From an uncultured bacterium (GTDB taxonomy: Bacteria; Ratteibacteria; UBA8468; B48-G9; DSTR01), in the NCBI GenBank assembly GCA_964645405.1, contig CAZYCA010000044.1:78503-142502 (forward strand): a DNA stretch of 64,000 bases, given 5' to 3'. Both the position numbers and the translations under genes were made by a program. The notes under the pieces are model-generated. The model saw only the letters and a program-made list of their open reading frames with translations. It was not told the origin of the DNA and did not search any database. Below, piece after piece: positions 4,517-52,648 of the stretch (position 1 is the stretch's first letter; the number at the start of each line of letters is the position of its first letter).

Positions 4517-4595
4517 AAGGCTGTTTCGGTCTGAAAGTTTTGAGATAAAGCAGAAGTATTACCGCGGTAATCAGTTAAACAAAAAAGGGGGGAAA

Positions 4596-5270: not shown

Positions 5271-5320
5271 AAAATCCTGACAAAAAAGAATTTCAATTTC
5301 ATAGGAAAGGAGGTGAGAAA

Positions 5321-5845: not shown

Positions 5846-6212
5846 AGTAAATCAAATTTACAGATGCAACGTATGCGGGAACATTGTGGTTGTTTTACAT
5901 GCGGGAGCAGGAGAGCTGGTTTGCTGTGGACAACCCATGGAATTACTTCCGGAAAAGACAGAAGATACAGGGAAAGAAAAACATGTGCCTGTGCTGGAGA
6001 AGACAGCTACCGGGATAAAAGTAAAAGTTGGTTCTGTCCCGCATCCCATGGAAGAAAAGCACCATATTGAATGGATTGAGATAATGGCTGACGGGTTCGT
6101 TGCCAGAAAATTCTTAAAGCCAGGGGACAAACCAGAGGCAGAGTTTGAGGTGCAGGCAGAAAACATTACCATTAGAGAATACTGCAATATCCACGGTTTG
6201 TGGAAGTCATAA
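5838..6212 (+). CDS. dfx: Desulfoferrodoxin (2Fe superoxide reductase)
   Basis: N-terminal desulforedoxin domain [12 protein letters not shown]...LVCCGQPM, then the SOR domain EKHVPV...H...CNIHGLW. It overlaps the preceding gene by 8 nt. Confidence 0.85.
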
Positions 6213-11930: not shown

Positions 11931-14900
11931 TTATTTTGCGCTGAGTTTTTCCTGTAACTGTTCAATGGCACTGGCTACTTTTTCCCGGCAGGCCAGAATA
12001 AGTTCATACGGCATGTTATAGTCATTCAAGGTTGGAAAAACATCATTCCAGATATTCTCCAGAATGTTTTGCGCTTTTTCTGCTTCTTTGTCCCATCCTT
12101 TTTCCTTTGCCTGAAGAATCATACTCCTTAAAAGATTTACATACCAGGCATCTTCCATCCCTTCCCTGATAATCTCCCATCTAATACTATCGACGGGCGA
12201 AGTGTCCACCCATCCTTTCCCTGGTTTTATCCAGGCAGGTTTCTCTGGATGCACAGGATACATTACGGAATTCCAGTGGCTATACCGGGAACGCCAGACT
12301 TCGTCATGGTCCTCCCAGCATTGTATTCCCCACCAGGAAATCAAATCAAGGTCATAACGAGCTGCCTGCCAGAGGTAACTGCGCCATTCTGAGGCTGGAG
12401 CAGAAACCGCAGTTTTTGGTGGAGGACCACAGTTGTACCAGGAAACCAGATCTCCTGCCTGCTTAGCCTTCTGGAAAAATGTACTGTTATGGAGCATGTA
12501 AAGAATCTGCCAGAGTTTAACAACACCCAGTCCTTTTTCTGCTTCCTGGTAATCAATGTTGTTAAAGGCAGTCATAAGAGGCATGCCAGCAGCTCTGGCT
12601 GCAGGAGTCAGTTTCTCCCACCAGTATTGAAAACCAGGTGGTTCATCACTTACTTTCAGAACAAACCGCTCCAGCCATCCTTTTCTGAGAAGGTGTTTTT
12701 TGAAAAGACCAATCATTTCCTCAGCATAGTAGTCAGCAATCCAGTGAACTCCTTCTCTTGATGTTTTTCCCTCAAACCTTTTAGGAAAAATTTTTTTGAA
12801 TTCTGAATGTTGTCTCCCCAGCAGCGCAAGTTCATAAAGCATATAACGAAGATTCCAGGGTTTTCCAGCCGCGTCAATGGTTTCCACCAGCCAGTCAAAG
12901 TAACTGGTATCTAAAGCTACAGTCCCATCATCATTAACTTCCAGCCAGTCAATATCCAGGTTTTTGTATTTCCCTTCCGGGCTGAAATGCCAGCGAAACA
13001 TTTCAGGAGGTCCCAGGTGGATAACTCTCATCCCGTGTTCTACAAGATTAATTACCAGGGATTCAATGTCCTGTTTCTTCAGTTCCCTTCTGGCATCAGG
13101 AGGAAACTGATTCAGGTGTATGTAGGGGTCACCACCCAACCCTTTCTCAGGAATGCTGAAATTGCGAACAGTCAGTTCCAGTGGAATGGTTTGTGAGACA
13201 TCATCTCCGGTGCAGGTTAAGGTGGAGTGGTAAACGCCAGGCTCAGCATTCTCAGATACTATTACTGTGAGCCAGAGCGCCTGGGTTTGCCCGGCATCCA
13301 GGGAGGAAACAGGTCTTTCCAGAAGCACATCAGGGTATCCTGTCCACCCTTTTTCCCAGCGGTCAGGTTCAACTGGATAATAGTAAACCCACCTTAACCA
13401 TAGAGGAGCATGTTTTTTTCTGAATGCTGTCTTATACCTTCTGTCAATTTCTTTACCTGTTTTTTCATGGACTAATGGGCTCAAAGTTACTTTCAGGTTT
13501 TTGATTTTCTGAAAAGCAGTAATGGCCAGTTGTTCTACCTCGTATTCACCTCTGGCTGCCTTCAAAGAAACTTTTTCTTTCTTTTCTTTGTGGGCTCTAC
13601 TGTAAGGATAGATTTTCCTGTCAGCACCGGCTACCCAGAAAATAAATCCTTCTGGTTCTTTTTTCTCTTTCAGGTAGTCGGTGATAAATTTTCTGGCTGC
13701 TTTCACAGTTCCAGAGGCATCACTGCCGGAAATCAGAAGTACCGATTCCTGGGTATCTTCGTAGTGGGGATAAAAAAGAATTGCACCCTTCCCCTTACCT
13801 GGCCAGGTAAGGCTCACGGAGTTTTTCCACCAGCCTATTTCTTTGACTACCTGGTTGGTTTCTGGATTTCCGATAATTAACAATTTGCCCCCGGGATTTG
13901 TCCAGGCTAGCCCAGCTCCTGTTTTTCTGGCAATAGTAATTGCCTGTTTTTTTTCCTCCGGGGAAGCCTCTGCAGAACAGTAAATGGTAAAATCACTTTC
14001 CTGAAGAAACTGGTCAATCTGTTTTTGCTGCTGCCTCTGGTAAACATCGGTTTTCACCGGTGGCAGATTCACCGGCTTTGTTTTGACTTCTATTTGACTG
14101 AGATTAAATTTTCCAGAAGAATCAACCTGGCCTATTGTTTTTCCAGCACTATCCACCGCCACAAGTTTCCAGTCAGAGTTGACCTGTGTTTTAATAATCA
14201 GGGTAGTGTCAGGACAGGCTCTATATTCAGCAATCCTGTTGCCTGTTTTTTCAACGACAAGTAACTTACCAGTAAAGAAAGGAATGATTTTCCCCTGGAG
14301 AAGATTTTGCTCACAAAAGAAAGGGTAAACAACAAGAAATAAAGGATTGATTCCATAAACCTTTTCCTTTACACCGGTGCAGGAGGACAAATAAACCTTT
14401 GTTTCCCAGGTATCTCCAGGCTTGAGCACCAGGGTTTTCAGGACCGGTTCCAGGGTGATTCCCGGACAGTTATAGAAACCAACAAGGGTTTTTTCCTCCA
14501 CCAGAAAACAGAGGGTGTCAGAACTGCTGCGGTTAACCCAGGCAGCCCAGTTTCCTTTCAAAACAGGTGTTGGAAGCTTTCCTGAGACCCAGTGCCGGGC
14601 TGGCTCATCCTTCCAGGAAGCGTTAAAAAATTTATCATTTTTGTATTTTTCTCTGTACTGCGTTAAATTTAGAGATTGATCCAGTTCCAGAATCCCTGCT
14701 TCTGTTTCCAGAAAAATGGTGTCATCCTTTTTTTGATATTTCCCTCTGGCACCAGGGCTGGCAGCGCTGTGAAGTCGCAGGGAAAAAGCAGAAACTTCCC
14801 CGCAAATGTTTTCTAATTTATAGCTCAGTTCAATAGTAGCCAGATCTCTTCTAAGGACCCATTTTTTTGTCAGCCGATAGGCTCCTTCACTTACCTGAAT

Positions 14901-15266
14901 CAAAACCGCGCCAGAACCATCCTGGTTTGTTCCATAAACTACGGGAATAAAAAGCCTTCCTGCCTGAGGTGCTTTACCCTGAAACTCTTTCCAGTTAACC
15001 GGGTCCCATTGCTCGCCCAGAAGATGTCCTCTGACATAATCTGTCTGTCCGTAAAGAACATCCACCATTTCATAGCCTGTGGATTTGAAAAACCAGGATA
15101 GAATACCCTGACTGCTACCCGGACGGCTGCTGATTTTAATATGGAGGAGACTGTTTTTTAGATTGACAGAACCATCAGGGTTAATTTTCACTTCCTGAGC
15201 CAGACCCGTTCTGGTAAGTGTTATTACCAGCAGGCAGAGAGAGATAAGCAGTCTTTTTCTTTCCAT
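11931..15266 (-). CDS. Giant secreted protein (1111 aa) with a C-terminal DUF4091/GH123-like (GH20-like D-E dyad) glycosidase module
   Basis: Signal peptide MERKRLLISLCLLVITLTRTGLAQ. C-terminal module with GVYHSTLTCTGDDVSQTIPLELTVRNFSIPE, then WLERFVLKVSDEPPG, then WYNCGPP...WWG. Paralogous to modules in the two genes described at 15280 and 22135. Confidence 0.6.
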   Translation of the reverse strand: MERKRLLISLCLLVITLTRTGLAQEVKINPDGSVNLKNSLLHIKISSRPGSSQGILSWFFKSTGYEMVDVLYGQTDYVRGHLLGEQWDPVNWKEFQGKAPQAGRLFIPVVYGTNQDGSGAVLIQVSEGAYRLTKKWVLRRDLATIELSYKLENICGEVSAFSLRLHSAASPGARGKYQKKDDTIFLETEAGILELDQSLNLTQYREKYKNDKFFNASWKDEPARHWVSGKLPTPVLKGNWAAWVNRSSSDTLCFLVEEKTLVGFYNCPGITLEPVLKTLVLKPGDTWETKVYLSSCTGVKEKVYGINPLFLVVYPFFCEQNLLQGKIIPFFTGKLLVVEKTGNRIAEYRACPDTTLIIKTQVNSDWKLVAVDSAGKTIGQVDSSGKFNLSQIEVKTKPVNLPPVKTDVYQRQQQKQIDQFLQESDFTIYCSAEASPEEKKQAITIARKTGAGLAWTNPGGKLLIIGNPETNQVVKEIGWWKNSVSLTWPGKGKGAILFYPHYEDTQESVLLISGSDASGTVKAARKFITDYLKEKKEPEGFIFWVAGADRKIYPYSRAHKEKKEKVSLKAARGEYEVEQLAITAFQKIKNLKVTLSPLVHEKTGKEIDRRYKTAFRKKHAPLWLRWVYYYPVEPDRWEKGWTGYPDVLLERPVSSLDAGQTQALWLTVIVSENAEPGVYHSTLTCTGDDVSQTIPLELTVRNFSIPEKGLGGDPYIHLNQFPPDARRELKKQDIESLVINLVEHGMRVIHLGPPEMFRWHFSPEGKYKNLDIDWLEVNDDGTVALDTSYFDWLVETIDAAGKPWNLRYMLYELALLGRQHSEFKKIFPKRFEGKTSREGVHWIADYYAEEMIGLFKKHLLRKGWLERFVLKVSDEPPGFQYWWEKLTPAARAAGMPLMTAFNNIDYQEAEKGLGVVKLWQILYMLHNSTFFQKAKQAGDLVSWYNCGPPPKTAVSAPASEWRSYLWQAARYDLDLISWWGIQCWEDHDEVWRSRYSHWNSVMYPVHPEKPAWIKPGKGWVDTSPVDSIRWEIIREGMEDAWYVNLLRSMILQAKEKGWDKEAEKAQNILENIWNDVFPTLNDYNMPYELILACREKVASAIEQLQEKLSAK

Positions 15267-15279
15267 CTTCCCCCCATTT

Positions 15280-18200
15280 TTAATGAGTAATGCTTTCCAT
15301 GAGAGCTTTTCTCAGAGCAGTTTTTACTGTCTGAAAACGTTCTGGTGTGATATTGTAAAAACTCTGTCTCTCCCCTTCAGGAGCCAGTACTGGTGCAACC
15401 ATTTCTTTCAGTTTTTCCTGTCCCAGTCTCTCTTTAACCAGGAAAAGGAGTTTAATGTCCTCCTGTGCCTGGCGGAAAAGTTCCAGTCTCTGGGAACCAA
15501 TAATTCTCTTTTCAGAAGCATCAGGATAAAAAACTGTGGTCCCACCAGGCCAGCCACCTGGATAATCAGTGTTAGCGTAAACATCAAAGACAAAATGGTC
15601 CCTCAGTTCTACAACCCCTTTCCCGCCTAACTCTCCACCGGACCACATATGACTCCAGTATCCACCACCATAATAAACAGCTCCGTCACACCCTTTCAGG
15701 AAACTGTCCCAGAGAAAAAAACGAATCTGGGTGGGAGTAGTCCGCAAATCAGCATAAGGTGCTCCACCCTTGCAGGTGTAATTCCAGACAACCTCACCCT
15801 CTTTTTTTCTTTCCTGAAGAAACTTCTGACTGAAAATGGTTGGTTCCTCCTCAGACATTGTCCTGCCGTAACGAGTAACCAGGAAAATCCAGTTAGGGCA
15901 CCAGATATTGATGGTACCAATCATTTTCTCTATCTCCTTCCTGCTGGTTCTGTTATGGCAAACTGTTACCGGTAGCCCTGCTCTGCGGAAAAAAGAAGCT
16001 GCTTTCACCCAGGCATCCATATCTGCCGGTTCATCTCCCACCCGCACATAAAGCCGGTCACGATAATCCTTATTTTTTAAAGAAGCAGCCAGAGAATCAG
16101 CCAGAAGATTAAATGCCTCTTCCTCTGTGAGATTAAGTTTTTTCATCATTGTTCTGGCTACAGGCAAAAGATTATTTGGATGCCCTACGATTTCAAAACG
16201 TCCGGAAAAGCCAGCCTTTTGATAAGCAGAAATGACTTTTTCCATCCCGGTTAAATCCCAGCACGGCATTCCTTTCTCCTTGAGGAAACATTCCAGACCA
16301 TACAAACCCCAGCCACTTCCAGCTACTGTAGCCACAGTAACTCCGTGAGAAGAGAAAAGTTTCCCCAGTTGAAAGAGTGCTTTTTCATAACAGGGCTCAT
16401 CAGGTTTTAAATTCAGGTAAAGAGCAAGACTGTTTTCCCGGTAAGAATAAAGTCCGTACATCAGGTTCAAATCCATCACCCAGCCAGAGGGTAAAACTAC
16501 TGGTAAGACATTCATTTCTACAGGTATCTGGAAAGAACTATCTGCACAGTCAATCTGTATCTTTCCCTGATAAAGACCGGGTACTGCAGAATCAGGAATC
16601 AGAAAATTGAACCAGAGGGAAAGGTAACTTTCTGCCGGGACCTGGTCAGGTATTCCTGGCCACAGGGCATCATTATTCGGTTCCGGACAGACATAAACAG
16701 GCCTTTTTTCTTCAGGAATATTTAGAGGATAGGTTGGTGCTCTGTGAGGTAAAGGATGCCCGATGAGGTAAATACTTCTTGCTGCAGGATAAACAGTGCC
16801 GTCAGAATCCAGCAAGGGAAATGTCCAGTAGATATGAGAAATTTCAGACTCTATTCTTGAATTGTTTGCGTTTTTAAGGGTTACCTGCACCCGGATAATT
16901 TTTTGTTTTTCCGGGAAAAAAAGAAGAAGGTGAACTGGTTCTACTTGTCCCTGACAGGCAGTAATATGGACTTTTTCAGGTTTAGACCTTCTCATCCATG
17001 GTCTTACCCTCATTTCTGGAGAGAGAAGACGAACCTGGGGACAGGTTATGGGTTTTAAATGGAAATGCTGGATAAGATATTCCGTCGCCAGTTTTACTCC
17101 GGAAATATCCTGGCCACCAGCATAAATTACAGGAAGCCCGGTTTTTAGAAAATCAGGAATGAGAACAATTCTACCTTTCTCTGGTCCTGGATAATAGCAG
17201 TCCACAAAGCCATATCCCGGGTTATTCGCCCCTACCACAGTATTTTCTTCAGGTGTACCCACCAGAATGAGTAAAAGGTTCTCACACTGGTAGGTTGGAT
17301 ACTGGGTGTTAAGAAAATTACTGAAGTTTTTAGCGGTAAGCAAAGGAGACTGAAATGCTTTTGCCAGTTTCTCAGCACAATAGAGACTACTTTTACTCAT
17401 TTTATCTCCGCTTAGAATAGCAATGTCCATCTCCTGGAGAAGTTTTGATATTTTGTTTCTGTCTGTAGCAGTGATGGCTACCCTGCCGGAAAAAACTTCT
17501 CTCTCTTTAACATAATGCGGAGCCAGAAAATCTGTCTGAAACTTCAGGTAGTCTTTTTCCCCGAAAGAAACGTCCTCAGGTAGTTGTGGATAAAGTGTTA
17601 ATCTCATTCTCAGGGAAACAGGTTTGCCAGCAGTATATTCTGTCCCGAACTGGTGGGGATTGATGTAGTTAGATTTTTCATTGAAGTTCCATATCCACCA
17701 TTGCAGTCCGGAACGATAGGCACCAGCTTCACCTTTTTTAGCACCAAAACTGCTTTTCAGGTCATCGCAGACATAAGAGAAAGCAGAAACCTTTCCTGCA
17801 ACGGCTGACCAGCAGCAACCTGTATTTTGCTGACTTTTGGCAGGAATGCCAAAAACAACAGAGACGGGTTTTCTGGTTTTTACATCTAAGGAATGTACCA
17901 GCCAGGTTTCTGTGGTGGTATCTACCACCAGTTGTCCTGTTCCGCAGATATAAAGACTGCCGTTTTGCTCAGGGACAAAAAGGGTCTCCAGATCTATCAT
18001 CGGTGATTGCCGGTAGATAGAGATTTTACTTTTTGTTGTCCCCGGGATGATTTCCACGTTCTGGTATCTGAGCTGTGACTTTCCAGTAATTAACAAAGTC
18101 GTCCTGAATGGTCCAGAGATTATCCTGATATCTGGTTTGCCCTGAAAAAAACCCAAATGGAACCCCTCTATGGAACTGACTCCTGTCTTCTGCCCGTTCC

Positions 18201-18654
18201 TGTAACGGAACTCTGTCAGTCTTCCTTTGACTAGTCCTTCTTTATCCGGTTCCCCGAGATAAAACAAGCAGGAAAAAATCTCATTGGAGAAAAAATATTT
18301 TTTCCCTTTTTCCATTTCTGCCAGGGTAGGTCCAGGTGAAAACTCATTTTTGACTGGCAGCAGTTTTACCCTTTTTCTCTCCTTGGGGTTCAAATCAACC
18401 AGGCCCACAATTTCTGTTTCCTCTGACGAAAAAACATCAATTTGTACAGGCAGGCTGACTTTTTCCTTAAGAGGGAAATTGCTGGTTTTTTCTGCAGCAG
18501 ACTTCACCTGTAAAACTACTGGTTGACCGCATACTGGAAAATCAAAGGGGTTGTAAAGGATAAATTCTTTCTCCTGGTTATTCCGGGCAATTCCAGGGGA
18601 AAGGAGAAAAAGATAGAGGGAAAAGGTCAGAAAGTACTTCTTTTCTCCTTTCAT
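15280..18654 (-). CDS. Giant secreted protein (1124 aa) with a DUF4091/GH123-like module
   Basis: Signal peptide MKGEKKYFLTFSLYLFLLSPGIARN. Module with GLYQGKIQIDCADSSFQIPVEMNVLPVVLPSG, then LYVRVGDEPADMDAW, then WNYTCKGG...GGGYWSHMW...FYPD. Confidence 0.6.
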   Translation of the reverse strand: MKGEKKYFLTFSLYLFLLSPGIARNNQEKEFILYNPFDFPVCGQPVVLQVKSAAEKTSNFPLKEKVSLPVQIDVFSSEETEIVGLVDLNPKERKRVKLLPVKNEFSPGPTLAEMEKGKKYFFSNEIFSCLFYLGEPDKEGLVKGRLTEFRYRNGQKTGVSSIEGFHLGFFQGKPDIRIISGPFRTTLLITGKSQLRYQNVEIIPGTTKSKISIYRQSPMIDLETLFVPEQNGSLYICGTGQLVVDTTTETWLVHSLDVKTRKPVSVVFGIPAKSQQNTGCCWSAVAGKVSAFSYVCDDLKSSFGAKKGEAGAYRSGLQWWIWNFNEKSNYINPHQFGTEYTAGKPVSLRMRLTLYPQLPEDVSFGEKDYLKFQTDFLAPHYVKEREVFSGRVAITATDRNKISKLLQEMDIAILSGDKMSKSSLYCAEKLAKAFQSPLLTAKNFSNFLNTQYPTYQCENLLLILVGTPEENTVVGANNPGYGFVDCYYPGPEKGRIVLIPDFLKTGLPVIYAGGQDISGVKLATEYLIQHFHLKPITCPQVRLLSPEMRVRPWMRRSKPEKVHITACQGQVEPVHLLLFFPEKQKIIRVQVTLKNANNSRIESEISHIYWTFPLLDSDGTVYPAARSIYLIGHPLPHRAPTYPLNIPEEKRPVYVCPEPNNDALWPGIPDQVPAESYLSLWFNFLIPDSAVPGLYQGKIQIDCADSSFQIPVEMNVLPVVLPSGWVMDLNLMYGLYSYRENSLALYLNLKPDEPCYEKALFQLGKLFSSHGVTVATVAGSGWGLYGLECFLKEKGMPCWDLTGMEKVISAYQKAGFSGRFEIVGHPNNLLPVARTMMKKLNLTEEEAFNLLADSLAASLKNKDYRDRLYVRVGDEPADMDAWVKAASFFRRAGLPVTVCHNRTSRKEIEKMIGTINIWCPNWIFLVTRYGRTMSEEEPTIFSQKFLQERKKEGEVVWNYTCKGGAPYADLRTTPTQIRFFLWDSFLKGCDGAVYYGGGYWSHMWSGGELGGKGVVELRDHFVFDVYANTDYPGGWPGGTTVFYPDASEKRIIGSQRLELFRQAQEDIKLLFLVKERLGQEKLKEMVAPVLAPEGERQSFYNITPERFQTVKTALRKALMESITH

Positions 18655-18670
18655 GGGCAGTTTTCCCTTA

Positions 18671-21600
18671 TCATCTCTGAGTTACCCAGAGATTTTGTAA
18701 TCTGATTGACGGAGAAGAAACTTTTTTCATTTCAGTGCCATAGACCAGACGGTCTCTCATCTCCAGAATTAACCTTTGCAAAACAAGGGGGAAATCCATT
18801 ATTCCGTCTCCACCTTCATACTTCCAGTTTCTATCTCTTGGGCCGTGGTAACCACCAGGGTAGCGACAAGGAAATCCCAGACGGATATTACACCAGCCAT
18901 CAAAGTTGATATAGGTTTGACTTTCCCAGTCTGAGACATTCCACCTGTCTGGTTCATAGCCGATAGAAATCCAGCGCTCTCCTTTGGCATCTTTAAACTC
19001 CCAGATGACCCGGCTCCAGCTACTGTTTCCCTTAATTACGAGCCCACAGGAATCTGCTGCAGTAGGTACAAGAATAGTCTTCTTTGGTTTTAAAATCAGA
19101 TACCGGGGACAGACAGCTGGGATCTCTGGCTGTGGCAGAAGAGTTACTTCTGTTACCGGTCCTTTCTTCTCGTCAAATACAGCGGAAATTGTACCTTTAC
19201 CAGCCCGGGCAGGATTGTCAAAGGCGTTTGTCTCCAGTTCCTCATCCGTTTCTGTCAGAAGCTGCCAGGATTCTGGTGAAGAAAAACTGTCTAAAATATA
19301 TACCTTTGCAGGAAGACTATCATCCAGGAAACTTTCACCTGCAGTAACAGAAACTACCTTTTCCGGACATATCAGATAGCCAGGCATGGCAGATACCTTT
19401 ATTGATACTGGCTGGTTATCAATTTTAACAGGGGTAACATTTCCCATACTGTCTATGAAGGTACTCTGGCACTGCCTTGCTGACTTGATTAACACCTGCC
19501 TTTCCCCTCTTAAAGTCCAGACAGCCAGGATTGTTTCTTTCCCGCGCTGGAACTGGAAAGCATAGAGACTGGTAGAACCTGTGTCCCATGCTTGCTGGTA
19601 TTTAGCCTGGTCCAGAACCCGGGTCAAAGTAGCCATCGCCACATAAGAAATTTTGGGGTATAAGAGAGGGTTTCTCATAAGGAAACCACTGGCACCATAG
19701 ATGGTGTAATAATAAGAATCAGCTACATCTTCCAGTAAACCGATATTAATACTGGGCATACCATAAGCCAGGGCATGGAGAGCATCTCTGACATAATAGG
19801 CAGCCTGGTCTTTCCAGGAAAGTGCACCAGGTTGGGTACAGCGGCAAATCCATTCAAAACCGGAAGAAACAGGTATGTCCTGGTAACCATAAATTTTTTT
19901 CATTTCCTGAAGCCACCAGACTTCCTGAAAGTTTCCTAATTCTGGTTGTCTTTCTGGCATTTTCCAGGCTGAAACTCCTTCTATACCAAAAGCATCAATA
20001 TACTCTTTCGGAAATTTTGCCCGCATAAACTGGATCATCAGAGGAGAGCTACTGTTACCAAAAGTAATTTTTACTCCAGGAAGTTTTTCCCGGTATAACC
20101 TGGCTGCTTCCAATGCCTGCTGCCAGAGTTTCTGGAATCTCTCGTTTTCTTCAGGTGTAAGTTCTGGTGCTGGTAGATTAAGAAGTTCCGGATAAAACAT
20201 CTGAGTCAGCCTGCCGGAAATACCTGTTTCATGGAAAATCATCGCCCATCTGACATGAGGATGTTTTGTAAAAAAAGTATTAACGATTTCCTCTCTCCTG
20301 GTTCCATACCAGGGAGCCATGGAATAGGAAAGTTTGTACTTAGCCAGTTGTTCACCAGAAAAATTTTTCCATCCTGAAGGACAGATGTGACGTATACCCA
20401 TCTTCTGGAGAAGCGGACCAACAGTATCAAGGGAGGCACAACCACCATGAGTACTACCAAACCACCAGACCCCAAAGGGTGATTCCAGACCAGCCTTTCT
20501 GGTATCGGCAGGAAGCAAGGCATAGAAAAAAGGTTCTTCCCAGATTTTTTCTCCTTCTTTATTTTTAATGGTTATTCTTGCCTGAAACCAGCCAGGATTT
20601 TTCTGACTTAAGTCCACTTCTATGATGTTATCGTTTTTTTCCGGGGAAGCTGGCAGAAAAACAGGAATATTTCTGGTTGTCTTCTGGTTATAGAAATCTT
20701 CTGTAGTCAGAATGAGGGAACCGGAGAAAGGAATCTTCTGATTGTTTTTCAAAATGACCTGGAGAGAAGGTTTTTTCTCATCCGCAAAGATAAAATCTCC
20801 ATGTTTTGTCCTGAGCTTTACTTCTACTGGACTTTCTTTCAGGGTCAGAGCCAGAACATGTACACTGCTGGGTAGTCCTAAAGGTTTAAGGGAACAGTTC
20901 TGGTAAGCGAAAAAATGGACAGCGGTACGAATCTCTTTTGTAAGTTCCAGATCCAGAAAATCACCTTCCCGGCCAAACTTGGGGAAATTGTCTCCCAGTA
21001 AATCAGAAATCTGACCTGCTGGTAAATCTACAGAAACAAGCCATAAAGGGATTTGGACTTCCTTTTTTCCCAGTATAATAGTAGCCTGTCCGGCTTTGCG
21101 GATATTTTCTGATGGTGACTGGGAATCCTCAGGGAGATAAACAACAGTGTCAGCAAAGGCATCACCTCGACCACCGCTATCCCCGTAGTGGTTACCAAAA
21201 CGGGTTAACCGCAGTCCCAGGGCCGGTACCTTATTCTTATTCGGCTCTACCAGGCAAAGAAGGTAAGCCTTCTGGTAAAAACGCTTTGGAATTCTGAAGA
21301 TGATACTTTCCGGATTGCCATCAAAGGCACTTCTGGTAGTATAGTTGTCGCAGAAGTCTGCCGGGTCAATACCCTCTTCCAGCCACCGGGAGAGGCCAAC
21401 GTCAATGTGCTTGTTCCAGGCAGCCACCTTCAGGGGAATACTGGAAAAGGTATCTTCCTGGATATTGAGGAACTTTAATTCCAGGCTACCTGGCCGGCCA
21501 TAATACTCAATTTCTAAAGGAAGAAAATCATTTTGTCTGATAGTTTTTTTCTTCTGAAAACCGATAATAAGACATCCCGGGGAAACTTCTAACAAGGTAG

Positions 21601-22138
21601 AATTTTTGTCCGGCGGTCCAGGAATAAAATTTATAAACCTGCCGTCCAGCCATACTTCCATACCTTCAGAATGAACATCCAGTCTTAACTGGAAAGGATG
21701 TTTTGTGGCAGGGGTAAAAAGATGGTATTTGGCTAATACCTGGTTTTGCTCCTCGAATACGTGTCTGTCAACAAACTGGTAAAACCAGCCACCTTTTCTT
21801 TTCTCGCCGACATAAAAGTAAGGGTTTGGTTTAATATAGTAATTCTGCTGGAGAGAAGGTTTCCCTGAAGTTGCCAAATCAAAAATCAGGCAGGATTCTT
21901 TTGTCTCTCTGGGAAGGTGTAAAGAAAATGAGCTACGTACGCCAGCCTGAGACCAGGAAACAACAAGGGTGGCATTTTCCTTTAAAAGAGAACCTTCCAG
22001 GACAACTCCTTCCCCGGTTTCTGGTAAAGAAAAATGGTAGCGGCTTTTCTCAGAAACCTGGAGGGGAAGGTCAGGTATCTGGGCGAAGACACAAACTAAA
22101 GGTAAAAAAAATAGCAGCAGGAAGAATATTCTGTTCAT
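18671..22138 (-). CDS. Giant secreted protein (1155 aa), glycoside-hydrolase-like. Different architecture; no clear DEP motif
   Basis: Signal peptide [21 protein letters not shown]-terminal half resembles a TIM-barrel GH (AMIFHETG...EGVSAW) followed by beta-sandwich domains. Its stop overlaps the upstream start by ATGA. Confidence 0.45.
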   Translation of the reverse strand: MNRIFFLLLFFLPLVCVFAQIPDLPLQVSEKSRYHFSLPETGEGVVLEGSLLKENATLVVSWSQAGVRSSFSLHLPRETKESCLIFDLATSGKPSLQQNYYIKPNPYFYVGEKRKGGWFYQFVDRHVFEEQNQVLAKYHLFTPATKHPFQLRLDVHSEGMEVWLDGRFINFIPGPPDKNSTLLEVSPGCLIIGFQKKKTIRQNDFLPLEIEYYGRPGSLELKFLNIQEDTFSSIPLKVAAWNKHIDVGLSRWLEEGIDPADFCDNYTTRSAFDGNPESIIFRIPKRFYQKAYLLCLVEPNKNKVPALGLRLTRFGNHYGDSGGRGDAFADTVVYLPEDSQSPSENIRKAGQATIILGKKEVQIPLWLVSVDLPAGQISDLLGDNFPKFGREGDFLDLELTKEIRTAVHFFAYQNCSLKPLGLPSSVHVLALTLKESPVEVKLRTKHGDFIFADEKKPSLQVILKNNQKIPFSGSLILTTEDFYNQKTTRNIPVFLPASPEKNDNIIEVDLSQKNPGWFQARITIKNKEGEKIWEEPFFYALLPADTRKAGLESPFGVWWFGSTHGGCASLDTVGPLLQKMGIRHICPSGWKNFSGEQLAKYKLSYSMAPWYGTRREEIVNTFFTKHPHVRWAMIFHETGISGRLTQMFYPELLNLPAPELTPEENERFQKLWQQALEAARLYREKLPGVKITFGNSSSPLMIQFMRAKFPKEYIDAFGIEGVSAWKMPERQPELGNFQEVWWLQEMKKIYGYQDIPVSSGFEWICRCTQPGALSWKDQAAYYVRDALHALAYGMPSINIGLLEDVADSYYYTIYGASGFLMRNPLLYPKISYVAMATLTRVLDQAKYQQAWDTGSTSLYAFQFQRGKETILAVWTLRGERQVLIKSARQCQSTFIDSMGNVTPVKIDNQPVSIKVSAMPGYLICPEKVVSVTAGESFLDDSLPAKVYILDSFSSPESWQLLTETDEELETNAFDNPARAGKGTISAVFDEKKGPVTEVTLLPQPEIPAVCPRYLILKPKKTILVPTAADSCGLVIKGNSSWSRVIWEFKDAKGERWISIGYEPDRWNVSDWESQTYINFDGWCNIRLGFPCRYPGGYHGPRDRNWKYEGGDGIMDFPLVLQRLILEMRDRLVYGTEMKKVSSPSIRLQNLWVTQR

Positions 22139-25100
22139 CTATCCTCCTTGTTTCCCAGGATTAACTGATAAAGTCTGGAACGGGCTTCATTCCAGCTGTC
22201 CATTTTCTGGCTATAGCCATATTTGTAAGGAACAACTGCTTCCAGTATTTGTTGAAGTTGACTGTTTAACTGGCTGGCTTTTTCCTTTTCTCCTTTTTCT
22301 TTTAAATCATGAATTTTTTTCTCCAGCTGCTCCAGCAGTTTCATATCCTGGATTCCTTCGGCTTCCAGCTGCCGGCGTGTAGTATCCAGGATGGTGCCAT
22401 CAGGAAGAAAAGCAATCCGGTGGTCAAGACCATGGTCATAACGGAAGGGGACAGGCTGGATATGGATATTACAATGCAAAGCAGCATAGTTTAAGGCACC
22501 ATCAAATTTCCATTTCTTAGTTAGCCAGTAGAAGGGTAGATTGTCAACAGGTTGACCTGTGATTCTGGTGGGTGGAACCCCACAGCAGTACCACCAGACT
22601 TCTTCTCCTACTTTCTGTCTTTCCTGGAAAAATGGACGGAGAACATTATGCTGGTAGTTAGGACACCATGGTTCCATGATACCAGAAGCTACCTCTATCT
22701 CCGGGTAGTTTCCTGAATGGCAGGTCATGGTGCGTAGTCCGGACAAGCGATAGGGTTTTGCCCACTCTACCCATTCTTTTATATCACGTGGTTCATCACT
22801 TACTTTCAGAATAAATCTTTCCAGCCTTCCTGTTTTTTCAACAAACGCAGCCAGCTGCTCAGCGAACATTTTTTGACATCCACCATTATGCCAGTGGCTG
22901 ACACCAACAAGCTCTCCAGAAATCTTTCCGGTGTCATGTGTTAACTGAGAAAGAAAGAAAGGTGGTGGCAGATTCTCTTTTCTATAAACCTCTTCTATAA
23001 TTTGCATCTGTTCTTTTAGTAGGGAAAAATCAACCGTAAAAGGATACTCCCGGTTTTCTTCTGAAAAAGCAACTATTTTACCTATTTCCAGTTCTTTCCC
23101 TTTCTGGTGGAAAAAACGCATTTTTTTCACTTTCTCTGACAGGCCGGTGAAGAAAAGTCCGTACCAGGAAGGTTCAGTGTTAGTTCCTTTAGGATATGGT
23201 AAAAGGTCTAATCTTTTCCATATTCCCTGATTTCCACAGACCTCCACTACTAAATCTTCCGGAGAAGTAACCCTGACTGCCAGTCCTGCCTGTCTTATTT
23301 TTAATGGTGAAGCAAACTCCACTGTAAGAATACTACCTTCCGGAACTTTTTTACCTCCTGCGGTGTAGACAGCCCAGTTCTCAGATTCAGCAGTTTGTGC
23401 GCTGGTTATTGCTTGCCTGACCGGTTCTATTCCTTCCTCACATTCCCAGGTAAGCAGCATTGGCAGACTGACTACACTTACGCTATGCCGGGCTTCGTTT
23501 TCTGCCAGAGATTTTGTTGCCTTTTTCCATTCTTCTGTCCCTGGAGGGAAAAACCAGGGCACAGCAGCAAAACTCATTGTTTTTACTCTGGAAAACGAAG
23601 GTAACTGTATGGGTAAGACGTTTACTCTTACAGGAACTGATTCCTGATAGTTTTGCCCGGAAACAACAATTTCTCCGTGATAGATACCCGGTCGGGTAAA
23701 CGTGGTTGTTTTTACTGTTAGCCAGATGCCTGTTGATGTCTTTCCGGGTAAAGAAATGGGAAAATCTACCAGAAAATTTGGTAGTCTCAGGTCCCCAAAA
23801 AATGGTTCCCATTCATAAAAACCAACTGCCCGCAGTTTCACCTCACCGGAAAAATCACCCTGGTCAGAGACAAGTTTCCTGCAGGACGCAGATAAAGAAA
23901 CAATATTTTTGTTTGCGGTGATACCAAGCTGAAGGGAACGAGTGTCATTTTGTCCCAGGGTAAGAGATAGGATTTCAGGTTTTCTTCTTTCTGGATGTAA
24001 CTGCCAGGGATAAACAACTTCTAAAACGTCAGAGGAGAAAAGACGGAAGGGTTTATCTGACAGCAGGGGAGATTTAATCTTTCCGAGAAGTCGTCTCCCG
24101 GCAGCAACCACAGCTTCAGGAGTTTCTCCAGTAACAAAAAGCCAGTGAATGCTGGCGTCGCTGTTTTTGTACCAGCCGACCACCCCTTCTTTGTTATTGA
24201 GAAAATTGGCATCAGACCAGATACCTTTTGCTGCCAGCAGCTGACGGCAGTAACGATGTGTCAGTGGCGTGCCAATAGCCAAAACAACCCCAGGATAGAG
24301 GTTAAGACCGATATCATCAGAAACCAGGTAAACACTGGCTTTTTCAGCAATTTCTCTGGCTATTTCCAGTTCTTCTTTTGTGCCCATTTTGGGATAAACA
24401 ATAACAATTTCTCTCCGGCTGATAGCATCAGCCACAGTCTCCAGGTCCTCAGAAAGAAGTGGAGGTTTTAATGGTTTAAAGGCTGGAAGTTCTTCTCCAG
24501 GTTGAGAATGGGGCAGCAACTGGATATTTTTTACTATCGGGCTTAGTTCTCCCCGGACAGAATCAGACTTCAGAATAAACTTTGCCTGGCAGACGGTAAG
24601 AGGAAATGTGGTAGCAGAAGGTATCTTTATTACCTTACCGGGTTCGGTAACAGGACCCAACCAGCAGGTCCAGTTTTTTCCATTTCCGAACCGCACCAGA
24701 GCAAAAAGTTGTGTTTTCCCCTTCACTTTCACTCCATGTATTTCGCAGTCTCCGGCCCCGTAAGTATCCTGTTTTGCCGGGAAGATTTCATTTTCCAGCC
24801 AGAGGTAGTGCCTGCCAGAAGGTAGATTATCTGCCAGAAGATGTTCTGATTTTTCTTTTTCCGGATGCAAGATAAGTCCGGAATGGCCGGTATCCAGAAA
24901 CCATCTAATTTTGCCCGTGCCAGAGACTAAAAGGGAAGCATTATCACCACAAAATTCAATTCCTGCCTGGCCACCAATCTGCCGCAGCAGAACAGATTTT
25001 CTTTTCAGCCAGGGTGTCTGCCAGCGCATGATGGGAAAGCCGCGGAATGACTCCATCTGAGGAGTATAAATAATTTCTTTTTCTTTTTCCTCGCATTCCC

Positions 25101-27108
25101 AATTTAAGGAAATACCCTTTATCCCCGGGGATAGACTTACTTCCTTTACCAGGCAGCCTTCCAGGGCGAAAGCAGTAGAGTACGCTTCCAGTTCTTTCAC
25201 CCCTGTTTTTAAACCCAGGCTGGAAGAAAGTTCCAGTTTTATACAGGCAACCCCGTGGACAGGATTGATTTGTAAGGTAACCTCTTTCCCCGGATAGAGA
25301 CTTTTTGTCCGGAATTGCTCCCAGAAGTTCCAGTCCCTTTCATACCGGCTGATGGTCTTTCCTGAAATGTCAAGAAAACTAATGGTGAAATAAGTATATT
25401 CTTCCAGGATGATGACCAGTTTTTCTATACTTGCTACCCGGGGAAGACTGACCATCAAAACTGCAGGAAGGTTTTCTGGTTGCCAGGATGTTTCCCTTTT
25501 CCCATCTATTGCCAGGCTGCCATTGCCGCTGGAACAGGTAAAGGCAGCATCCTTCAGAAGATTCTTACTGGCAGGAAAATTAGCCAGAGCAATTTCTTCT
25601 CCAGCAAGAATAATAGTTTCAGGCGTTTCTGGTAAAGGTGGTAAAGAACAAGAAGGTGTTTTCAAAAACGATTTTTCCGGTGTTGAATTTCTGGGTAACG
25701 GTCCCTGGACAATCTTTGTTTCCCCGTTTAACACAGAGAGGAACCATTCTGCTGCCGTGGCAGCCTGGCAGGTAGGGCAAAACCTGACTGCCTGCTCGAG
25801 GTTTTTAATGGCAGTTTCTTTATCAATACACCAGCTACCCCTTCCCGCCTTGAAAAAGTAATCACTGGCAGCATCAGCCAGATTGAGTCTCCTGCACATT
25901 TTGGCACAAAACATCATTACTTCCACCATCAATCCGGGCCGGGTGTCTAAAAAAGGTAGCTGTGCCAGTTGCTTGATTTTATGGCCATCGCGGTGAATGT
26001 CGCCAGCATTTTTTTCCAGATATTTTTTTATCAGATAAATGCTTTCTGTTTTTCCTTTCAGAAAGCTACTGATATGAGCGTAATAGTCTTCAGCTATTCT
26101 TCCAGAAGGCATCACTTCCAGGGCAAAACTGAGGAAAGGAATCTGTCGGGCAGAAGATAAACCTTGAATTTCTTTGAGAAAATCCTTCCAGAAAGGTTCT
26201 GTCACTCCGGCAGGTTGTTTTTTGATTTCTTCAAGTATTTTTAAGGCATCCTGATACTGCTTTGCACCAAATAACTGGTGGATGGAGGAAAGAATTTCCT
26301 TCAGTTTCTGAGCAGTGTTCTTCTCTATCTCTTCCATTTCCTTTAATTTCTGACTGGAATTTTCGTCTCCTGACTTGCTTTGCAAAAAAAGCAACCTTTT
26401 TAAAGCATTCCACCTTTCTGGGGTCTGTTCCTGGTAACGGTCAAGAAAACGTTTCAGCTCAGGAATGGCTTTTTCTGCTGGAACCGTGGAAGTGTAACAG
26501 TCGAGAAAGGACCAGAGAAATACTCTACTGTAAGGATAGGTACCACAGACTTCTTCTCCCCTTCTGGCAAGAATATATTTTTCTTCTGGTGAGAGAGGCA
26601 GACTGGCAATTGTATTCTGGGTTAAGGAAAGCATCCAGGAAGCATGCTGACAGTTGTCCAGGAAAACCAGCAAACAATCTTTTCTTATGTCTTCAGGTAA
26701 ATTACGGTCAATAACAATTCTTACTAACTGGTAAAGCAGGCTGGCCTTCAAACTACCATAGTCAGGATAATCCTTACAGAATTTTGCAAACCCCTCTGCA
26801 AAATTCAGGTACCTGCCTGATGCAAATAAGGAAGAGAGAAAAGTATTTGCTGACCAGGCTGGCCATTGAGTTTCCGGGTAAACATTAGCCAGGTACTTCC
26901 AGCGGGAGAAAAGTTGCTCAGGAGTGAGACCTTTTTCCAGAATAATTTCTTCATAAATTCTTTTTGCCTGGTCCTGCCGGGCTAAATTGTGTTCCGGGTC
27001 GCTGAAACAGTTTCCGCAGAGGAAACTGCCAAGAAAAAATGGCAAGTAAGAAAAACACTGCTTCTTCATTATTCTTTGCTTAAAGCTAACCTGGTGAAAA
27101 GCTACCAC
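22135..27108 (-). CDS. Giant secreted multidomain protein (1657 aa): alpha-helical repeat N-domain, discoidin (F5/8 type C) domain, C-terminal DUF4091/GH123-like module
   Basis: Signal peptide [23 protein letters not shown]. About 450 aa of helical, TPR-like sequence. Discoidin-like [31 protein letters not shown]-terminal [30 protein letters not shown], then [14 protein letters not shown], then WYCCGVPP. Confidence 0.6.
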
Positions 27109-27854
27109 ATTCTGAATTTAGTACTCCAGGGACCATCATCTGTGCCAGAATTGGGCACTGGTGGTGTCACGTATTCTGCATGGCCATCAGCAAACAGAAT
27201 GTTTACACCGTAAAAATGGTGTCTTGCCCACCAGTCCACCACCGGCCGACCAACCGTGGTACTGGCAAAACTTCTGGGTAGCCTGACTATGTACTGGCTG
27301 AAATCTCCGAGGACAAAAAATCTGCTGGGTTCCGGTAACCGGCCAAGTCTTCTGGGACCGGTACCACCTGTTCCCCACCAGTTCCTTCCAAACTGAAGGG
27401 TAAAATTATAGCCATAACTGTGGCCCAGCCAGGAAATGGCAGTACTTGGCCAGCTTGTCGGACACTGAAACTGAGGGATAAACCTGTCAATAGAAGTTGG
27501 CAGAGTGGAATCATGGCAGGTTTTTCCTGTCAGATCTAATTTCGGGTCCAGATAATGAGCAATCTGTAACATCCAGTGAGCCCAGTATTCAGTATTATTC
27601 GGGTAGGTGCCACCAATCCTGGCCGGGTCCCAGGTTACTACGGGAAAATAATCATCATTGTCCTGAAGATACAGGAAAATTGCCAGTCCCATCTGTTTGC
27701 AGTTATTAAGGCAGGCAGCACGTCTGGCATTTTCTCTGGCTCTTTCCAGCACAGGTAAAAGAATGGCAGCTAAAATGGCAATGATGGCAATTACCACTAA
27801 CAATTCAATCAGGGTAAATCCATTTTTCACCCATAATTTTTTTCTGTCCATTTT
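27102..27854 (-). CDS. Prepilin-type N-terminal cleavage/methylation domain protein, DUF1559/H-X9-DG family (pseudopilin-like)
   Basis: Preferred start [11 protein letters not shown]|[24 protein letters not shown] (class III signal peptide, Glu at +5). C-terminal [13 protein letters not shown] matches H-X9-DG. The ORF-track start at 27932 would overlap the next gene. Confidence 0.7.
27720..27822 (-). repeat. About 100-nt segment roughly 80% identical to 28447-28548 (5' ends of the two tandem pseudopilin paralogues)
   Basis: Pairwise comparison by eye: ...ggtaaaagaatggcagctaaaatggcaatgatggcaattaccactaacaattcaatcagggtaaa... versus ...ggcaaaagcaaagcggctaaaatggcgatgatcgcaattaccactaataactcaatcaaagtaaaa... 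Confidence 0.5.
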
Positions 27855-27861
27855 TTCCTCC

Positions 27862-28566
27862 TCATTCAACAAAGGTAAACGGGTTATAAAGAACACCAAT
27901 ACCGGTGGTGGGATTATCAATGCTTTGTTCAATGTTAGGACCTGCTACCCACTGGACCCGGCCATCCATAAAAAGCACATTTACTCCCTGCCAGCCATGA
28001 TTCAGGTAGGCACCGGTGATTCTTGGCTGGTAAGCACTGGCAGTCGTATCCTGCTTTGCTTTCCAGATAGAACTACGTTTGTCAAACGTGTAGTACCACT
28101 TATCGCTTTCATCTATTAAGAGGGCAAACTTCTGGAAGTAGGGGTCACTGCTGACCTGAAGCTGGATGGCATAGGCGTAAGAACAGTGGTTTCTTTTATC
28201 CTTTCCGGTGGGACATCCTCCCGGACAGTTCTGGGAAATACGGGTATTGCGGCCGATATGGTCGTAGGTGCGGGCTGAAGGGCAGACAAAAACTCCGGCA
28301 GATTTCAGATACCCTTCTGTCTGTAGCATCGCCAGAGAACGCAGCATATTCAGGCTGTTGGGCCAGGAAGGAAAAAATCCTCCAAAATCCTGGGCATACA
28401 TAGTTAAAGATGTGCCCAGTTGTTTCAGGTTACTCGTACAGACGCCACGTCGCGCGTTTTCTCTTGCCCGGCCCAGGACAGGCAAAAGCAAAGCGGCTAA
28501 AATGGCGATGATCGCAATTACCACTAATAACTCAATCAAAGTAAAACCTTTACTGTCTGTCTTCAC
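27862..28566 (-). CDS. Prepilin-type N-terminal cleavage/methylation domain protein, DUF1559-like (second tandem paralogue)
   Basis: N-terminus MKTDSKG|[34 protein letters not shown]-terminal [19 protein letters not shown]. Its start overlaps the regulator stop (28563-28566). Confidence 0.7.
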
Positions 28567-41204: not shown

Positions 41205-41213
41205 TTAACATCC

Positions 41214-43218: not shown

Positions 43219-43221
43219 TTT

Positions 43222-50143: not shown

Positions 50144-50150
50144 CTTTGCC

Positions 50151-52521: not shown

Positions 52522-52648
52522 TTTTGCCTTCTCCCGTAGAAGTTTGAAAGGTATTTTATCTTTAATCAGCCCTTTCAGACAAGTGGTGGGGTTCAGGTAG
52601 AAAATGACAGCGCTGTTTTCAGATGATAAAATTGAAGCAGGCAAAAAT

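Follow-up and report, generated by a model that had tools for sequence, protein, structure and literature searches.

Gene content and conservation of the array

The window, that is the whole 64,000-nt stretch of DNA analysed, carries the large ORFs P1, P2, P3 and P4 at the positions given for them in the initial annotation, all on the minus strand (Table 1). Their spacing is operon-like, with a 4-nt overlap between P4 and P3 and gaps of 16 nt between P3 and P2 and 13 nt between P2 and P1. The unit extends beyond this four-gene set: the co-directional array comprises a regulator gene, two DUF1559 pseudopilin-like genes, P4-P3-P2-P1 and a DUF4838 gene, and is faced by a convergent GH38 gene. The best sigma-70-like site of the region, recognised by consensus match only, is found directly upstream of the regulator gene. 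For P4, a start at Met14 giving 1644 aa is the more probable one, because the orthologue in the syntenic locus L002 aligns from Met14 and 1644 aa is also the length returned by other gene callers; P4 residue numbers used here follow the 1657-aa GTG-start ORF.

Table 1 Features of the array and its surroundings. Positions are those of the window; nucleotide positions of selected residues and segments are included.
Feature	Position	Strand	Evidence or remark
Sigma-70-like site	29701-29673	-	
Transcription regulator (GntR-type HTH + LacI-type sugar-binding domain)	28563..29645	-	Pfam GntR 8e-19, Peripla_BP_3 1e-31; opens the co-directional array
DUF1559 / N-methylation-motif pseudopilin-like protein	27862..28566	-	Pfam N_methyl 1.6e-9, SBP_bac_10 (DUF1559) 2.4e-10
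Second DUF1559 / N-methylation-motif pseudopilin-like protein	27102..27932	-	Pfam N_methyl 4.8e-8, DUF1559 3.3e-12
P4	22135..27069 (27108 for the 1657-aa GTG-start ORF)	-	GH123_cat 23.6 bits; DEP codons 22789-22797
P4 barrel insertion	22909-23445	-	
P3, 1155 aa	18671..22138	-	GH39-like, not a paralogue of P1/P2/P4
P3 H636-E637	20228-20233	-	Candidate catalytic residues
P3 E762	19853-19855	-	Candidate catalytic residue
P2, 1124 aa	15280..18654	-	GH123_cat 28.3 bits; DEP codons 16027-16035
P1, 1111 aa	11931..15266	-	GH123_cat 44.8 bits; DEP codons 12639-12647
DUF4838 protein, 615 aa from ATG at 11908	10061..11908	-	Pfam DUF4838 2.8e-18; closes the array
GH38 alpha-mannosidase, 944 aa	7224..10058	+	Pfam Glyco_hydro_38N 2.5e-54 + middle and C-terminal domains
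Sulfatase	48698-50194		

The N-termini of P1-P4 resemble Sec signal peptides by eye (two of the four are MERKRLLISLCLLVITLTRTGLAQE and MKGEKKYFLTFSLYLFLLSPGIARN), and the DUF4838 protein and the GH38 alpha-mannosidase are both without a signal peptide. No TonB-dependent receptor or SusD domain, as expected of a Bacteroidota-type PUL, was detected by Pfam in any ORF between 6370 and 30540, and the array codes for no transporter.

The nearest relatives are in MAGs that bear either the label Candidatus Omnitrophota or just 'bacterium'. Omnitrophota-labelled MAGs also show the array order, in some cases without P2. L002 keeps the order regulator-pseudopilins-P4-P3-P1-DUF4838 with the convergent GH38 gene at 59-71% identity; the orthologues of the regulator (69%), the DUF4838 protein (67%) and the GH38 protein (68%) each occupy the same position, and homologues of the DUF1559 pseudopilin-like proteins are at the equivalent place. 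Parts of the order are held by L001 and L006, the latter including the P1-DUF4838 adjacency. P2 is missing from L001 and L002, and a 38% homologue in L006 adjoins P1-like and DUF4838 genes. The conserved convergent synteny in L002 bears out the suggestion of the initial annotation that the GH38 gene belongs with the paralogues. A sulfatase assigned to the same battery has to be dropped from it, as it lies 20 kb off, is missing from the syntenic loci and is separated from the array by several genes, among them those for a cyclic beta-1,2-glucan-synthase-like protein and an Opp-type ABC transporter.

GH123-type modules of P1, P2 and P4

P1-P4 had been described as four tandem paralogues sharing a module with a DEP motif, in a text that itself conceded three. 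All the motifs quoted there were found in the translations, and the shared module holds for P1, P2 and P4, whereas P3 is not a paralogue (no BLASTP match to P4 below E=3). BLASTP aligned P1 with P2 at E=3e-20 across ~650 aa, P1 with P4 at 5e-19 plus 7e-15, and P2 with P4 at 8e-17 plus 2e-06. As their identity is only 22-32%, P1, P2 and P4 are old lineages and not the outcome of a recent tandem expansion.

The Pfam family GH123_cat (PF13320, formerly DUF4091) matched P1, P2 and P4 above its gathering cutoff of 23.1 bits, marginally in the case of P4, and did not match P3. A phmmer search of the PDB returned NgaDssm (8k2j, Group 3) as the top match of all three proteins (7e-8 for P4), with DEP aligned on the catalytic ADEP, and a profile built from P1 and its relatives matched every GH123-family crystal structure (1e-119 to 1e-29). 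The DE pairs (D874-E875 in P1, D874-E875 in P2 and D1438-E1439 in P4) are in register with D353-E354, the catalytic pair of NgaDssm, as well as with the DE of BvGH123, and are kept in all orthologues. Together with the GH123-like fold of P1, this agrees with the proposal that DEP is a glycosidase active-site motif.

P1 consists of a signal peptide (1-23), a galactose-mutarotase-like supersandwich with a beta domain (24-400), an alpha/beta domain (408-535), the GH123 N-terminal beta-sandwich (541-705), a (beta/alpha)8 barrel (711-1025) containing D874-E875 and a C-terminal helical bundle (1028-1109); in the model, beta-sandwich and barrel superpose on solved GH123 structures. In P2, a signal peptide and an N-terminal part of ~400 aa are followed by an alpha/beta domain (~399-540) and the predicted GH123-type beta-sandwich and barrel, with D874-E875 as the putative catalytic pair; only 5 relatives of P2 were found. 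P4 has a signal peptide, a helical region of ~440 aa, beta domains (~480-870) and an alpha/beta domain (~878-1020) ahead of its predicted GH123-type beta-sandwich and barrel, where D1438-E1439 is the putative catalytic pair. The alpha/beta domain, which is S-layer-anchor-like, is common to the three proteins. The P4 barrel is interrupted by an insertion of ~180 aa (residues ~1222-1400), which P0051 and the orthologue of L002 share; neither this insertion nor the helical region matched Pfam. A discoidin domain named in the initial annotation was not recovered: residues 481-880 of P4 gave no Pfam match at a threshold as loose as E<=1.

It could be supposed that DEP and its flanking motifs are a chance or compositional likeness among unrelated large secreted proteins, as DEP is just three residues long and the Pfam score of P4 is near threshold. 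Given pairwise BLASTP E values of the order of 1e-17 to 1e-20 over several hundred residues, eight or nine family-wide positions in register in the alignment, and a P1 fold that agrees with all GH123 structures, such an origin has virtually no likelihood and was discarded in favour of common descent of the three modules.

Nine residues have been called invariant in the expanded GH123 family (NgaLy D95, W115, D327, E328, Y392, G427, W431, Y466 and R478) (PMC11087588), a set defined on 17 sequences, the numbering of which was checked against Supplementary Table 8. In a MAFFT alignment of P1, P2 and P4 with NgaDssm and 36 other sequences, the full set was kept by none of the three (P1 8/9, P2 8/9, P4 6/9), and the D, the E and the substrate-binding Tyr were retained in all of them. 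P1 has L975 at the position of NgaLy G427, a Gly reported to be sterically essential, and a residue other than Gly occurs here in 11 of 12 P1-type sequences. P2 has Y995 at the W431 position and keeps the other eight residues, and P4 carries N1111 (D to N), Y1541 (W to Y) and F1567 (Y to F). At the Y466 position, the Lys of P1 and the Leu of P4 given by a small MAFFT alignment were artefacts according to deeper alignments, in which the equivalents are Y1003 in P1, followed by a 13-residue insertion, and F1567 in P4. Because the nine-residue set was defined on 17 sequences, these departures point to lineages beyond the sampled GH123 groups and not to exclusion from GH123. P1, P2 and P4 are new, deeply diverged members of this known family.

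Owing to its marginal Pfam score, its three changed residues and its barrel insertion, P4 could have altered or lost activity. Taken further, one or more of the paralogues, P4 above all, would be catalytically dead and act as GH123-like glycan-binding or scaffolding subunits, for which the ~870 aa of non-catalytic sequence in P4 also speak, as does the behaviour of NgaLy mutants (D95A and Y466A gave insoluble protein, W431A ~26% activity; PMC11087588). The P4 changes are, however, conservative (D/N, W/Y, Y/F), Tyr occupies the last of these positions in the L002 orthologue, and D1438-E1439 and Y1507 are retained, also in orthologues with 59% and 84% identity. In pseudo-enzymes the catalytic pair is usually the first to go, and loss of catalysis in one or more of the paralogues is considered very improbable.

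P3, a GH39-like protein

The core of P3 had been described as different from that of the other three and TIM-barrel-like, and indeed a (beta/alpha)8 barrel is present at 555-840. It is preceded by a signal peptide and N-terminal beta domains (27-545, galectin/ConA-like), and followed by a beta-sandwich (846-937) and an extra beta domain (946-1155). In the model, barrel and C-terminal beta-sandwich superpose on GH39 structures. No Pfam or NCBIfam match was obtained at E<=0.1, and with phmmer and a P3-family profile the match in the PDB was confined to the beta-sandwich of 5JVK. The family counts ~44 sequences and is without HMM coverage in the libraries searched.

The candidate catalytic residues are H636-E637 and E762. 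Across 42 sequences (23-70% identical), E637 is invariant and follows the strand 631-633, and E762, at least 90% conserved, follows the strand 757-758. E637, the nearly invariant E720/E762, and H636, N695, R583 and D804/D807/Y809 are clustered at the predicted barrel strand ends. In GH39 enzymes the two catalytic Glu stand at the ends of strand 4 (acid/base) and strand 7 (nucleophile). In clan GH-A the residue preceding the acid/base is typically Asn, and here it is His636. P3 is best described as a GH39-like clan GH-A retaining glycosidase of a rare family, with a putative catalytic Glu pair. A non-enzymatic role, structural or lectin-like, for a surface protein whose TIM barrel has degenerated would suit the lack of any matching HMM family, the restriction of sequence likeness to the beta-sandwich, the several galectin/ConA-like domains and the His at the usual Asn position; it is nonetheless judged quite unlikely, since conserved residues at the predicted strand ends are the pattern expected of an active site.

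A relationship of P3 to DSSM_1, a five-domain non-GH123 protein (Sumida et al.), was also considered, and no resemblance was visible over the ~400 aa compared. A general partnership of P3 with GH123 was not seen in three distant genomes, where P3 homologues are not consistently beside GH123 genes, so that it is the close relatives that link P3 functionally to the paralogues.

Proposed function

The DUF4838 protein matched PF16126 with 66.6 bits (cutoff 26.6) over profile positions 32-321 of 325, and no solved relative was found by sequence. GH163 and GH185, two substrate-assisted and GlcNAc-directed families, have DUF4838 as their catalytic domain (PMC10570127), and a putative GH163/GH185-type, GH20-related beta-N-acetylhexosaminidase catalytic domain is assigned to the protein.

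The locus is best read as an ordinary operon for sugar breakdown in an uncultured bacterium. In all likelihood it serves glycan degradation, with P1, P2 and P4 as exported, divergent GH123 beta-N-acetylhexosaminidases, P3 as a GH39-like glycosidase and cytoplasmic finishing enzymes. This reading draws on homology, on the folds of P1 and P3, on conservation of the dyad and on gene order. The activity and its preference for GalNAc or GlcNAc, the location of the proteins in the cell, co-transcription of the genes and the nature of the glycan are predicted from these. [quoted passage not shown] P3 would act as a separate enzyme, a clan GH-A retaining glycosidase. The large non-catalytic parts (mutarotase-like supersandwich, S-layer-anchor-like alpha/beta domain, helical region and lectin-like beta domains) probably serve to bind a polymeric substrate, to hold it in position or to tether the enzymes. 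Two cytoplasmic enzymes, the GH38 mannosidase and the hexosaminidase-type DUF4838 protein, would complete the breakdown of the oligosaccharides released, and the glycan would be a HexNAc- and probably mannose-containing polymer; mucin, glycosphingolipid and algal glycoprotein, proposed in the initial annotation, are guesses.

The modules may also be active with a main target other than beta-GalNAc, either beta-GlcNAc or another 2-acetamido sugar, or by endo-action on an exopolysaccharide or a cell-envelope polymer of bacteria or archaea. Within GH123, the enzymes of Group 2 are beta-HEX and those of Groups 1 and 3 set oligosaccharides free, the substrate-contacting Trp is Tyr in P2 and P4, and the neighbouring DUF4838 and GH38 genes belong to GlcNAc- and mannose-directed families. 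Such targets would suit a predatory or host-dependent way of life, as has been proposed for Omnitrophota, the label borne by the related MAGs. The GH123 enzymes characterised so far are, on the other hand, almost all GalNAc-specific, and this alternative is held to be rather unlikely. A bolder version, regarded as unlikely, makes P1, P2 and P4 the founders of three new subfamilies that branch deeply within GH123, and P3 that of a new GH family or a new subfamily of GH39, all displayed together on the cell surface via the shared S-layer-anchor-like domain and dismantling a HexNAc-rich polymer attacked by no characterised GH123 enzyme (e.g. exopolysaccharide or envelope material from other microbes), the lineage being one suspected to be host-dependent or predatory. 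If so, the altered 'invariant' residues and the P4 insertion would represent new endo-acting or non-GalNAc specificities.

Under the preferred reading as a glycan-degradation operon, four uncharacterised enzyme lineages occur in one operon with known relatives as a guide. GH123, formerly made up of a few exo-GalNAc-ases, has recently been broadened to take in endo-like and GlcNAc-active groups, and P1, P2 and P4 could show how far specificity drifts in this fold; they are also potential tools for cutting GalNAc- or GlcNAc-containing glycans. P3 could found a new CAZy family or subfamily. The cluster hints at the diet of poorly known Omnitrophota-like bacteria; a literature search on the glycoside hydrolases of Omnitrophota gave no mention of GH123. 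A known picture is filled in, and no concept is changed.

Comparison with known systems

The closest characterised relative of P1, P2 and P4 is NgaDssm (PDB 8K2J/8K2K), a Group 3 beta-N-acetylgalactosaminidase from a deep-sea metagenome that releases oligosaccharides and monosaccharides (Sumida et al. 2024, PMC11087588). Identity is ~20-25%, and NgaDssm has 568 aa in two domains, whereas P1, P2 and P4 have 1111-1644 aa with 540-1020 extra N-terminal residues, which in P1 include the mutarotase-like and S-layer-anchor-like domains; P4 also has the barrel insertion. In NgaDssm numbering, G457 is replaced by Leu in P1, W461 by Tyr in P2 and P4, and D131 by Asn in P4. Classical GH123 exo-beta-N-acetylgalactosaminidases (BvGH123 5L7R, CpNga123 5FQE and NgaP) are more distant, with a phmmer value of 2e-7 for P1 and at best a borderline match for P2 and P4; these compact enzymes come from gut and soil Bacteroidota and Bacillota and act on glycosphingolipid or mucin-type termini.

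P3 compares with the GH39 protein BACCELL_00856 of Bacteroides cellulosilyticus WH2 (5JVK) and with PslG (4ZN2) at 17% identity. It differs from them in matching no Pfam model, in additional sequence at both ends (lectin-like beta domains of ~520 aa at the N-terminus, one domain of ~210 aa at the C-terminus), and in the His before its putative acid/base. The DUF4838 protein shares its catalytic domain with GH163 (BT1035) and GH185 (Sp_0475) and, as in the GH185 cluster, is without a signal peptide; unlike the GH163/GH185 systems, the array holds no sulfatase or N-glycan-specific partner. As a whole, the array resembles a PUL in logic only, with DUF1559 pseudopilin-like genes instead of a SusC/SusD-like pair.

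Gene arrangement and relatedness of the four proteins

Translation of the window placed four ORFs, all on the minus strand, at the coordinates named in the initial annotation, and every motif quoted there is present. P4 and P3 overlap by 4 nt, followed by gaps of 16 nt (P3-P2) and 13 nt (P2-P1), an operon-like spacing, and each of the four proteins was found on inspection to have a Sec signal peptide-like N-terminus. The true start of P4 is more probably Met14 (ATG 27069) than GTG 27108; the P4 orthologue in the related locus L002 (59% identical) aligned from Met14, and other gene calls give 1644 aa. For the DUF4838 gene, the longest-ORF start GTG 11971 is probably wrong, its orthologues starting at the internal ATG 11908. 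These two ATG starts leave no overlap with neighbouring genes.

Coordinates of the features in the window
Feature	Position	Strand	Remarks
P1	11931-15266	-	ORF, 1111 aa; DEP codons 12639-12647
P2	15280-18654	-	ORF, 1124 aa; DEP codons 16027-16035
P3	18671-22138	-	ORF, 1155 aa
P3, His-Glu of FHETG	20228-20233	-	
P4	22135-27108	-	ORF, 1657 aa from GTG; DEP codons 22789-22797
ORF	6370-7194	+	274 aa
Opp/Dpp-type ABC transporter genes	39353-44286	-	
URO-D-family protein	46910-47890	+	
Sulfatase, class II aldolase, FGGY sugar kinase	48698-52656	-	
ORF	52604-54199	+	531 aa
ORF	55258-55911	-	217 aa
URO-D-family protein	60221-61432	-	

BLASTP matched P1 with P2 (3e-20, about 650 aa), P1 with P4 (5e-19 and 7e-15) and P2 with P4 (8e-17 and 2e-06), while P3 matched none of these. 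Therefore, of the four paralogues first proposed, P1, P2 and P4 stand as such and P3 is an unrelated protein. The DEP tripeptide alone is meaningless as evidence; judged from the likeness of the surrounding sequence, the resemblance is not due to chance, and that explanation is refuted. As the region common to P1, P2 and P4 in the pairwise comparisons includes an alpha/beta domain (residues 408-535 in P1, ~399-540 in P2 and ~878-1020 in P4), the repeated unit comprises this domain, the beta-sandwich and the barrel, and so is larger than the module described initially. The 22-32% identity and the separate orthologues in other genomes argue against a recent tandem expansion and point to old lineages brought or kept together. 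The C-terminus of P1 is a helical bundle, and no HMM match was obtained for the first 400 aa of P2, for P4's helical stretch of 440 aa or for the beta domains that follow it, so that the 'discoidin' label found no HMM support.

Assignment to GH123

The Pfam model GH123_cat (PF13320, formerly DUF4091; cutoff 23.1 bits) matched P1, P2 and P4 with 44.8, 28.3 and 23.6 bits, respectively, and the model of the GH123 N-terminal beta-sandwich matched P1 clearly and P2 and P4 weakly. The top PDB-sequence match of all three was 8K2J (NgaDssm), a Group 3 oligosaccharide/monosaccharide-releasing beta-N-acetylgalactosaminidase (Sumida et al. 2024, PMC11087588). Each alignment set DEP onto the ADEP of NgaDssm, where the corresponding residues are the Asp stabiliser and the Glu acid/base of substrate-assisted catalysis.

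Searching the whole library by HMMER disclosed 1600 relatives of P1 at E<=1e-3; when these were grouped into clusters at 50% identity, the full P1 architecture was present in only ~13 clusters. P1 was aligned with 35 of the relatives, and from this alignment an AlphaFold model was built (pLDDT 92.2, pTM 0.88), in which D874-E875 come after barrel strand 868-871. Comparison of this model with known enzymes gave 25.0 for 8K2K, 24.5 for BvGH123, 24.4 for NgaCa, 23.0 for CpNga123, 22.5 for NaNga, 21.7 for NgaAt and 20.0 for a Group 4 enzyme, and the profile of the alignment matched all compared GH123 structures (1e-119 to 1e-29). These results went against both refutations named in the initial annotation (no HMM similarity to DUF4091/GH123, models lacking a glycosidase-like active site around DEP), and its GH123 reading therefore stands. 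From sequence and model, P1, P2 and P4 are members of GH123 as now defined, with the corresponding function predicted; of the family's five criteria on sequence and structure, only the presence of all nine invariant residues does not hold for them.

These nine residues are conserved in all five GH123 groups (Sumida et al., PMC11087588, Supplementary Table 8), a rule that rests on 17 sequences, and their mutation destroyed folding or substrate recognition (PMC11087588). Their equivalents were read from 40 aligned sequences, the NgaDssm numbering being checked against Supplementary Table 8.

Equivalents of the nine conserved GH123 residues (departures in brackets)
NgaDssm	P1	P2	P4
D131	D646	D662	(N1111)
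W150	W665	W681	W1129
D353	D874	D874	D1438
E354	E875	E875	E1439
Y422	Y944	Y959	Y1507
G457	(L975)	G991	G1537
W461	W979	(Y995)	(Y1541)
Y494	Y1003	Y1043	(F1567)
R505	R1029	R1056	R1578

Of 12 P1-type sequences checked, 11 have another residue in place of the Gly equivalent to G457. Tyr replaces W461 in all P2 and P4 relatives, and each of the three P4-type sequences has Asn for D131; the L002 orthologue of P4 has Tyr at position 1567. Neither the catalytic dyad nor the Tyr that binds substrate is ever lost, and the remaining changes are conservative; we read P1, P2 and P4 as three putatively active lineages beyond the groups covered to date rather than as pseudo-enzymes. P4 is the weakest case for activity, and its barrel holds an insertion of ~180 aa (residues ~1222-1400), conserved in orthologues and with no Pfam match. 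A purely binding, non-catalytic role for P4 (or others) would agree with these departures and, with the dyad intact, is unlikely.

The unrelated protein P3

P3 had no Pfam or NCBIfam match, and only 44 homologues were found among 5.8 billion clustered proteins, none with a Pfam match to the core. Their source MAGs bear the labels Planctomycetota, Omnitrophica, Kiritimatiellae and Armatimonadota; the more distant homologues lie near other glycosidases without regular GH123 neighbours. E637, which comes after a barrel strand, is invariant in the family, and E762, E720, H636, N695 and R583 are each at least 90% conserved. From their strand positions we infer that E637 is the putative acid/base and E762 the putative nucleophile. 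Clan GH-A normally has Asn before the acid/base; in the P3 family this place is held by a conserved His (FHETG). P3 is alike to GH39 and clan GH-A by fold but fails the GH39 sequence criterion, and may deserve its own family. A non-enzymatic P3, which the missing Pfam match would allow, is unlikely beside the conserved Glu residues.

In L004 (GCA_041320515.1, a 5.97-Mb genome), a 506-aa protein (4460-5980) with weak matches to GH123 N-terminal domains only, and no GH123_cat match recorded, is encoded upstream of the P3 homologue at a distance of 3 kb. In another such locus, L007, a URO-D-like gene follows the P3 homologue.

Gene neighbourhood and proposed function

Upstream of P4, on the same strand, are a GntR-HTH/LacI-type regulator and two DUF1559 pseudopilin-like genes. 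Downstream is the DUF4838 protein and, convergent to its gene, a GH38 alpha-mannosidase, both without a signal peptide. GH163 and GH185, both GH20-related and GlcNAc-directed with substrate-assisted catalysis, have DUF4838 as their catalytic domain (PMC10570127). L002 (contig JAKPFT010000022) carries, in the same order and at 59-71% identity, the regulator, pseudopilins, P4, P3, P1, a 350-aa ORF, DUF4838 and the GH38 gene, whose partnership, proposed earlier, is borne out by the same convergent position. L001, from an Omnitrophota MAG, has part of this order. In these two loci, the closest syntenic ones, P1 follows P3 with no P2 between them; L006, in another Omnitrophica MAG, carries a P2 homologue of 38% identity directly before a P1-like gene and a DUF4838 gene. 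From the gene content of these loci, P1 and DUF4838 are the constant core and P2, P3 and P4 variable additions. P2 is a presence/absence polymorphism; its homologues elsewhere include P0046, at 86% identity, and others at 38-39%.

It is proposed that exported P1, P2 and P4 would cleave beta-linked HexNAc, by default GalNAc, off a polymeric glycan, the DE dyad enabling neighbouring-group participation. P3 would take off a different sugar with retention, accessory domains would bind the polymer or cell surface, and the DUF4838 enzyme and GH38 would complete the products in the cytoplasm. The enzymatic identity is held with good confidence, the substrate specificity with much less. Specificity for GlcNAc or another acetamido-sugar, or endo action on microbial envelope polymers, is compatible with this proposal and a possible, if doubtful, variant.

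The cytoplasmic sulfatase initially counted in the system is 20 kb off, behind unrelated genes, and we leave it out of the system. This sulfatase, without a signal peptide, precedes genes for a class II aldolase and for an FGGY sugar kinase on the same strand. The three may form a small cytoplasmic unit for the catabolism of sulfo-sugars or deoxy-sugars; they are unrelated to the GH123 array. The Opp/Dpp-type transporter (two ATPases, two permeases) comes after a weak DHDPS-family protein, with no solute-binding protein gene among ORFs of at least 200 aa. Two URO-D-family proteins score weakly (5.7e-18 and 2.3e-7), one adjoining xylose-isomerase-like TIM-barrel proteins, and the three tabulated ORFs named only by length had no Pfam match at E<=0.001-0.01.

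Clusters of multi-domain glycosidases like the one described here are common, and its main value lies in the uncharacterised enzymes that it offers as targets. Although it is without SusC/D, the array resembles a Bacteroidota-type PUL in its logic.
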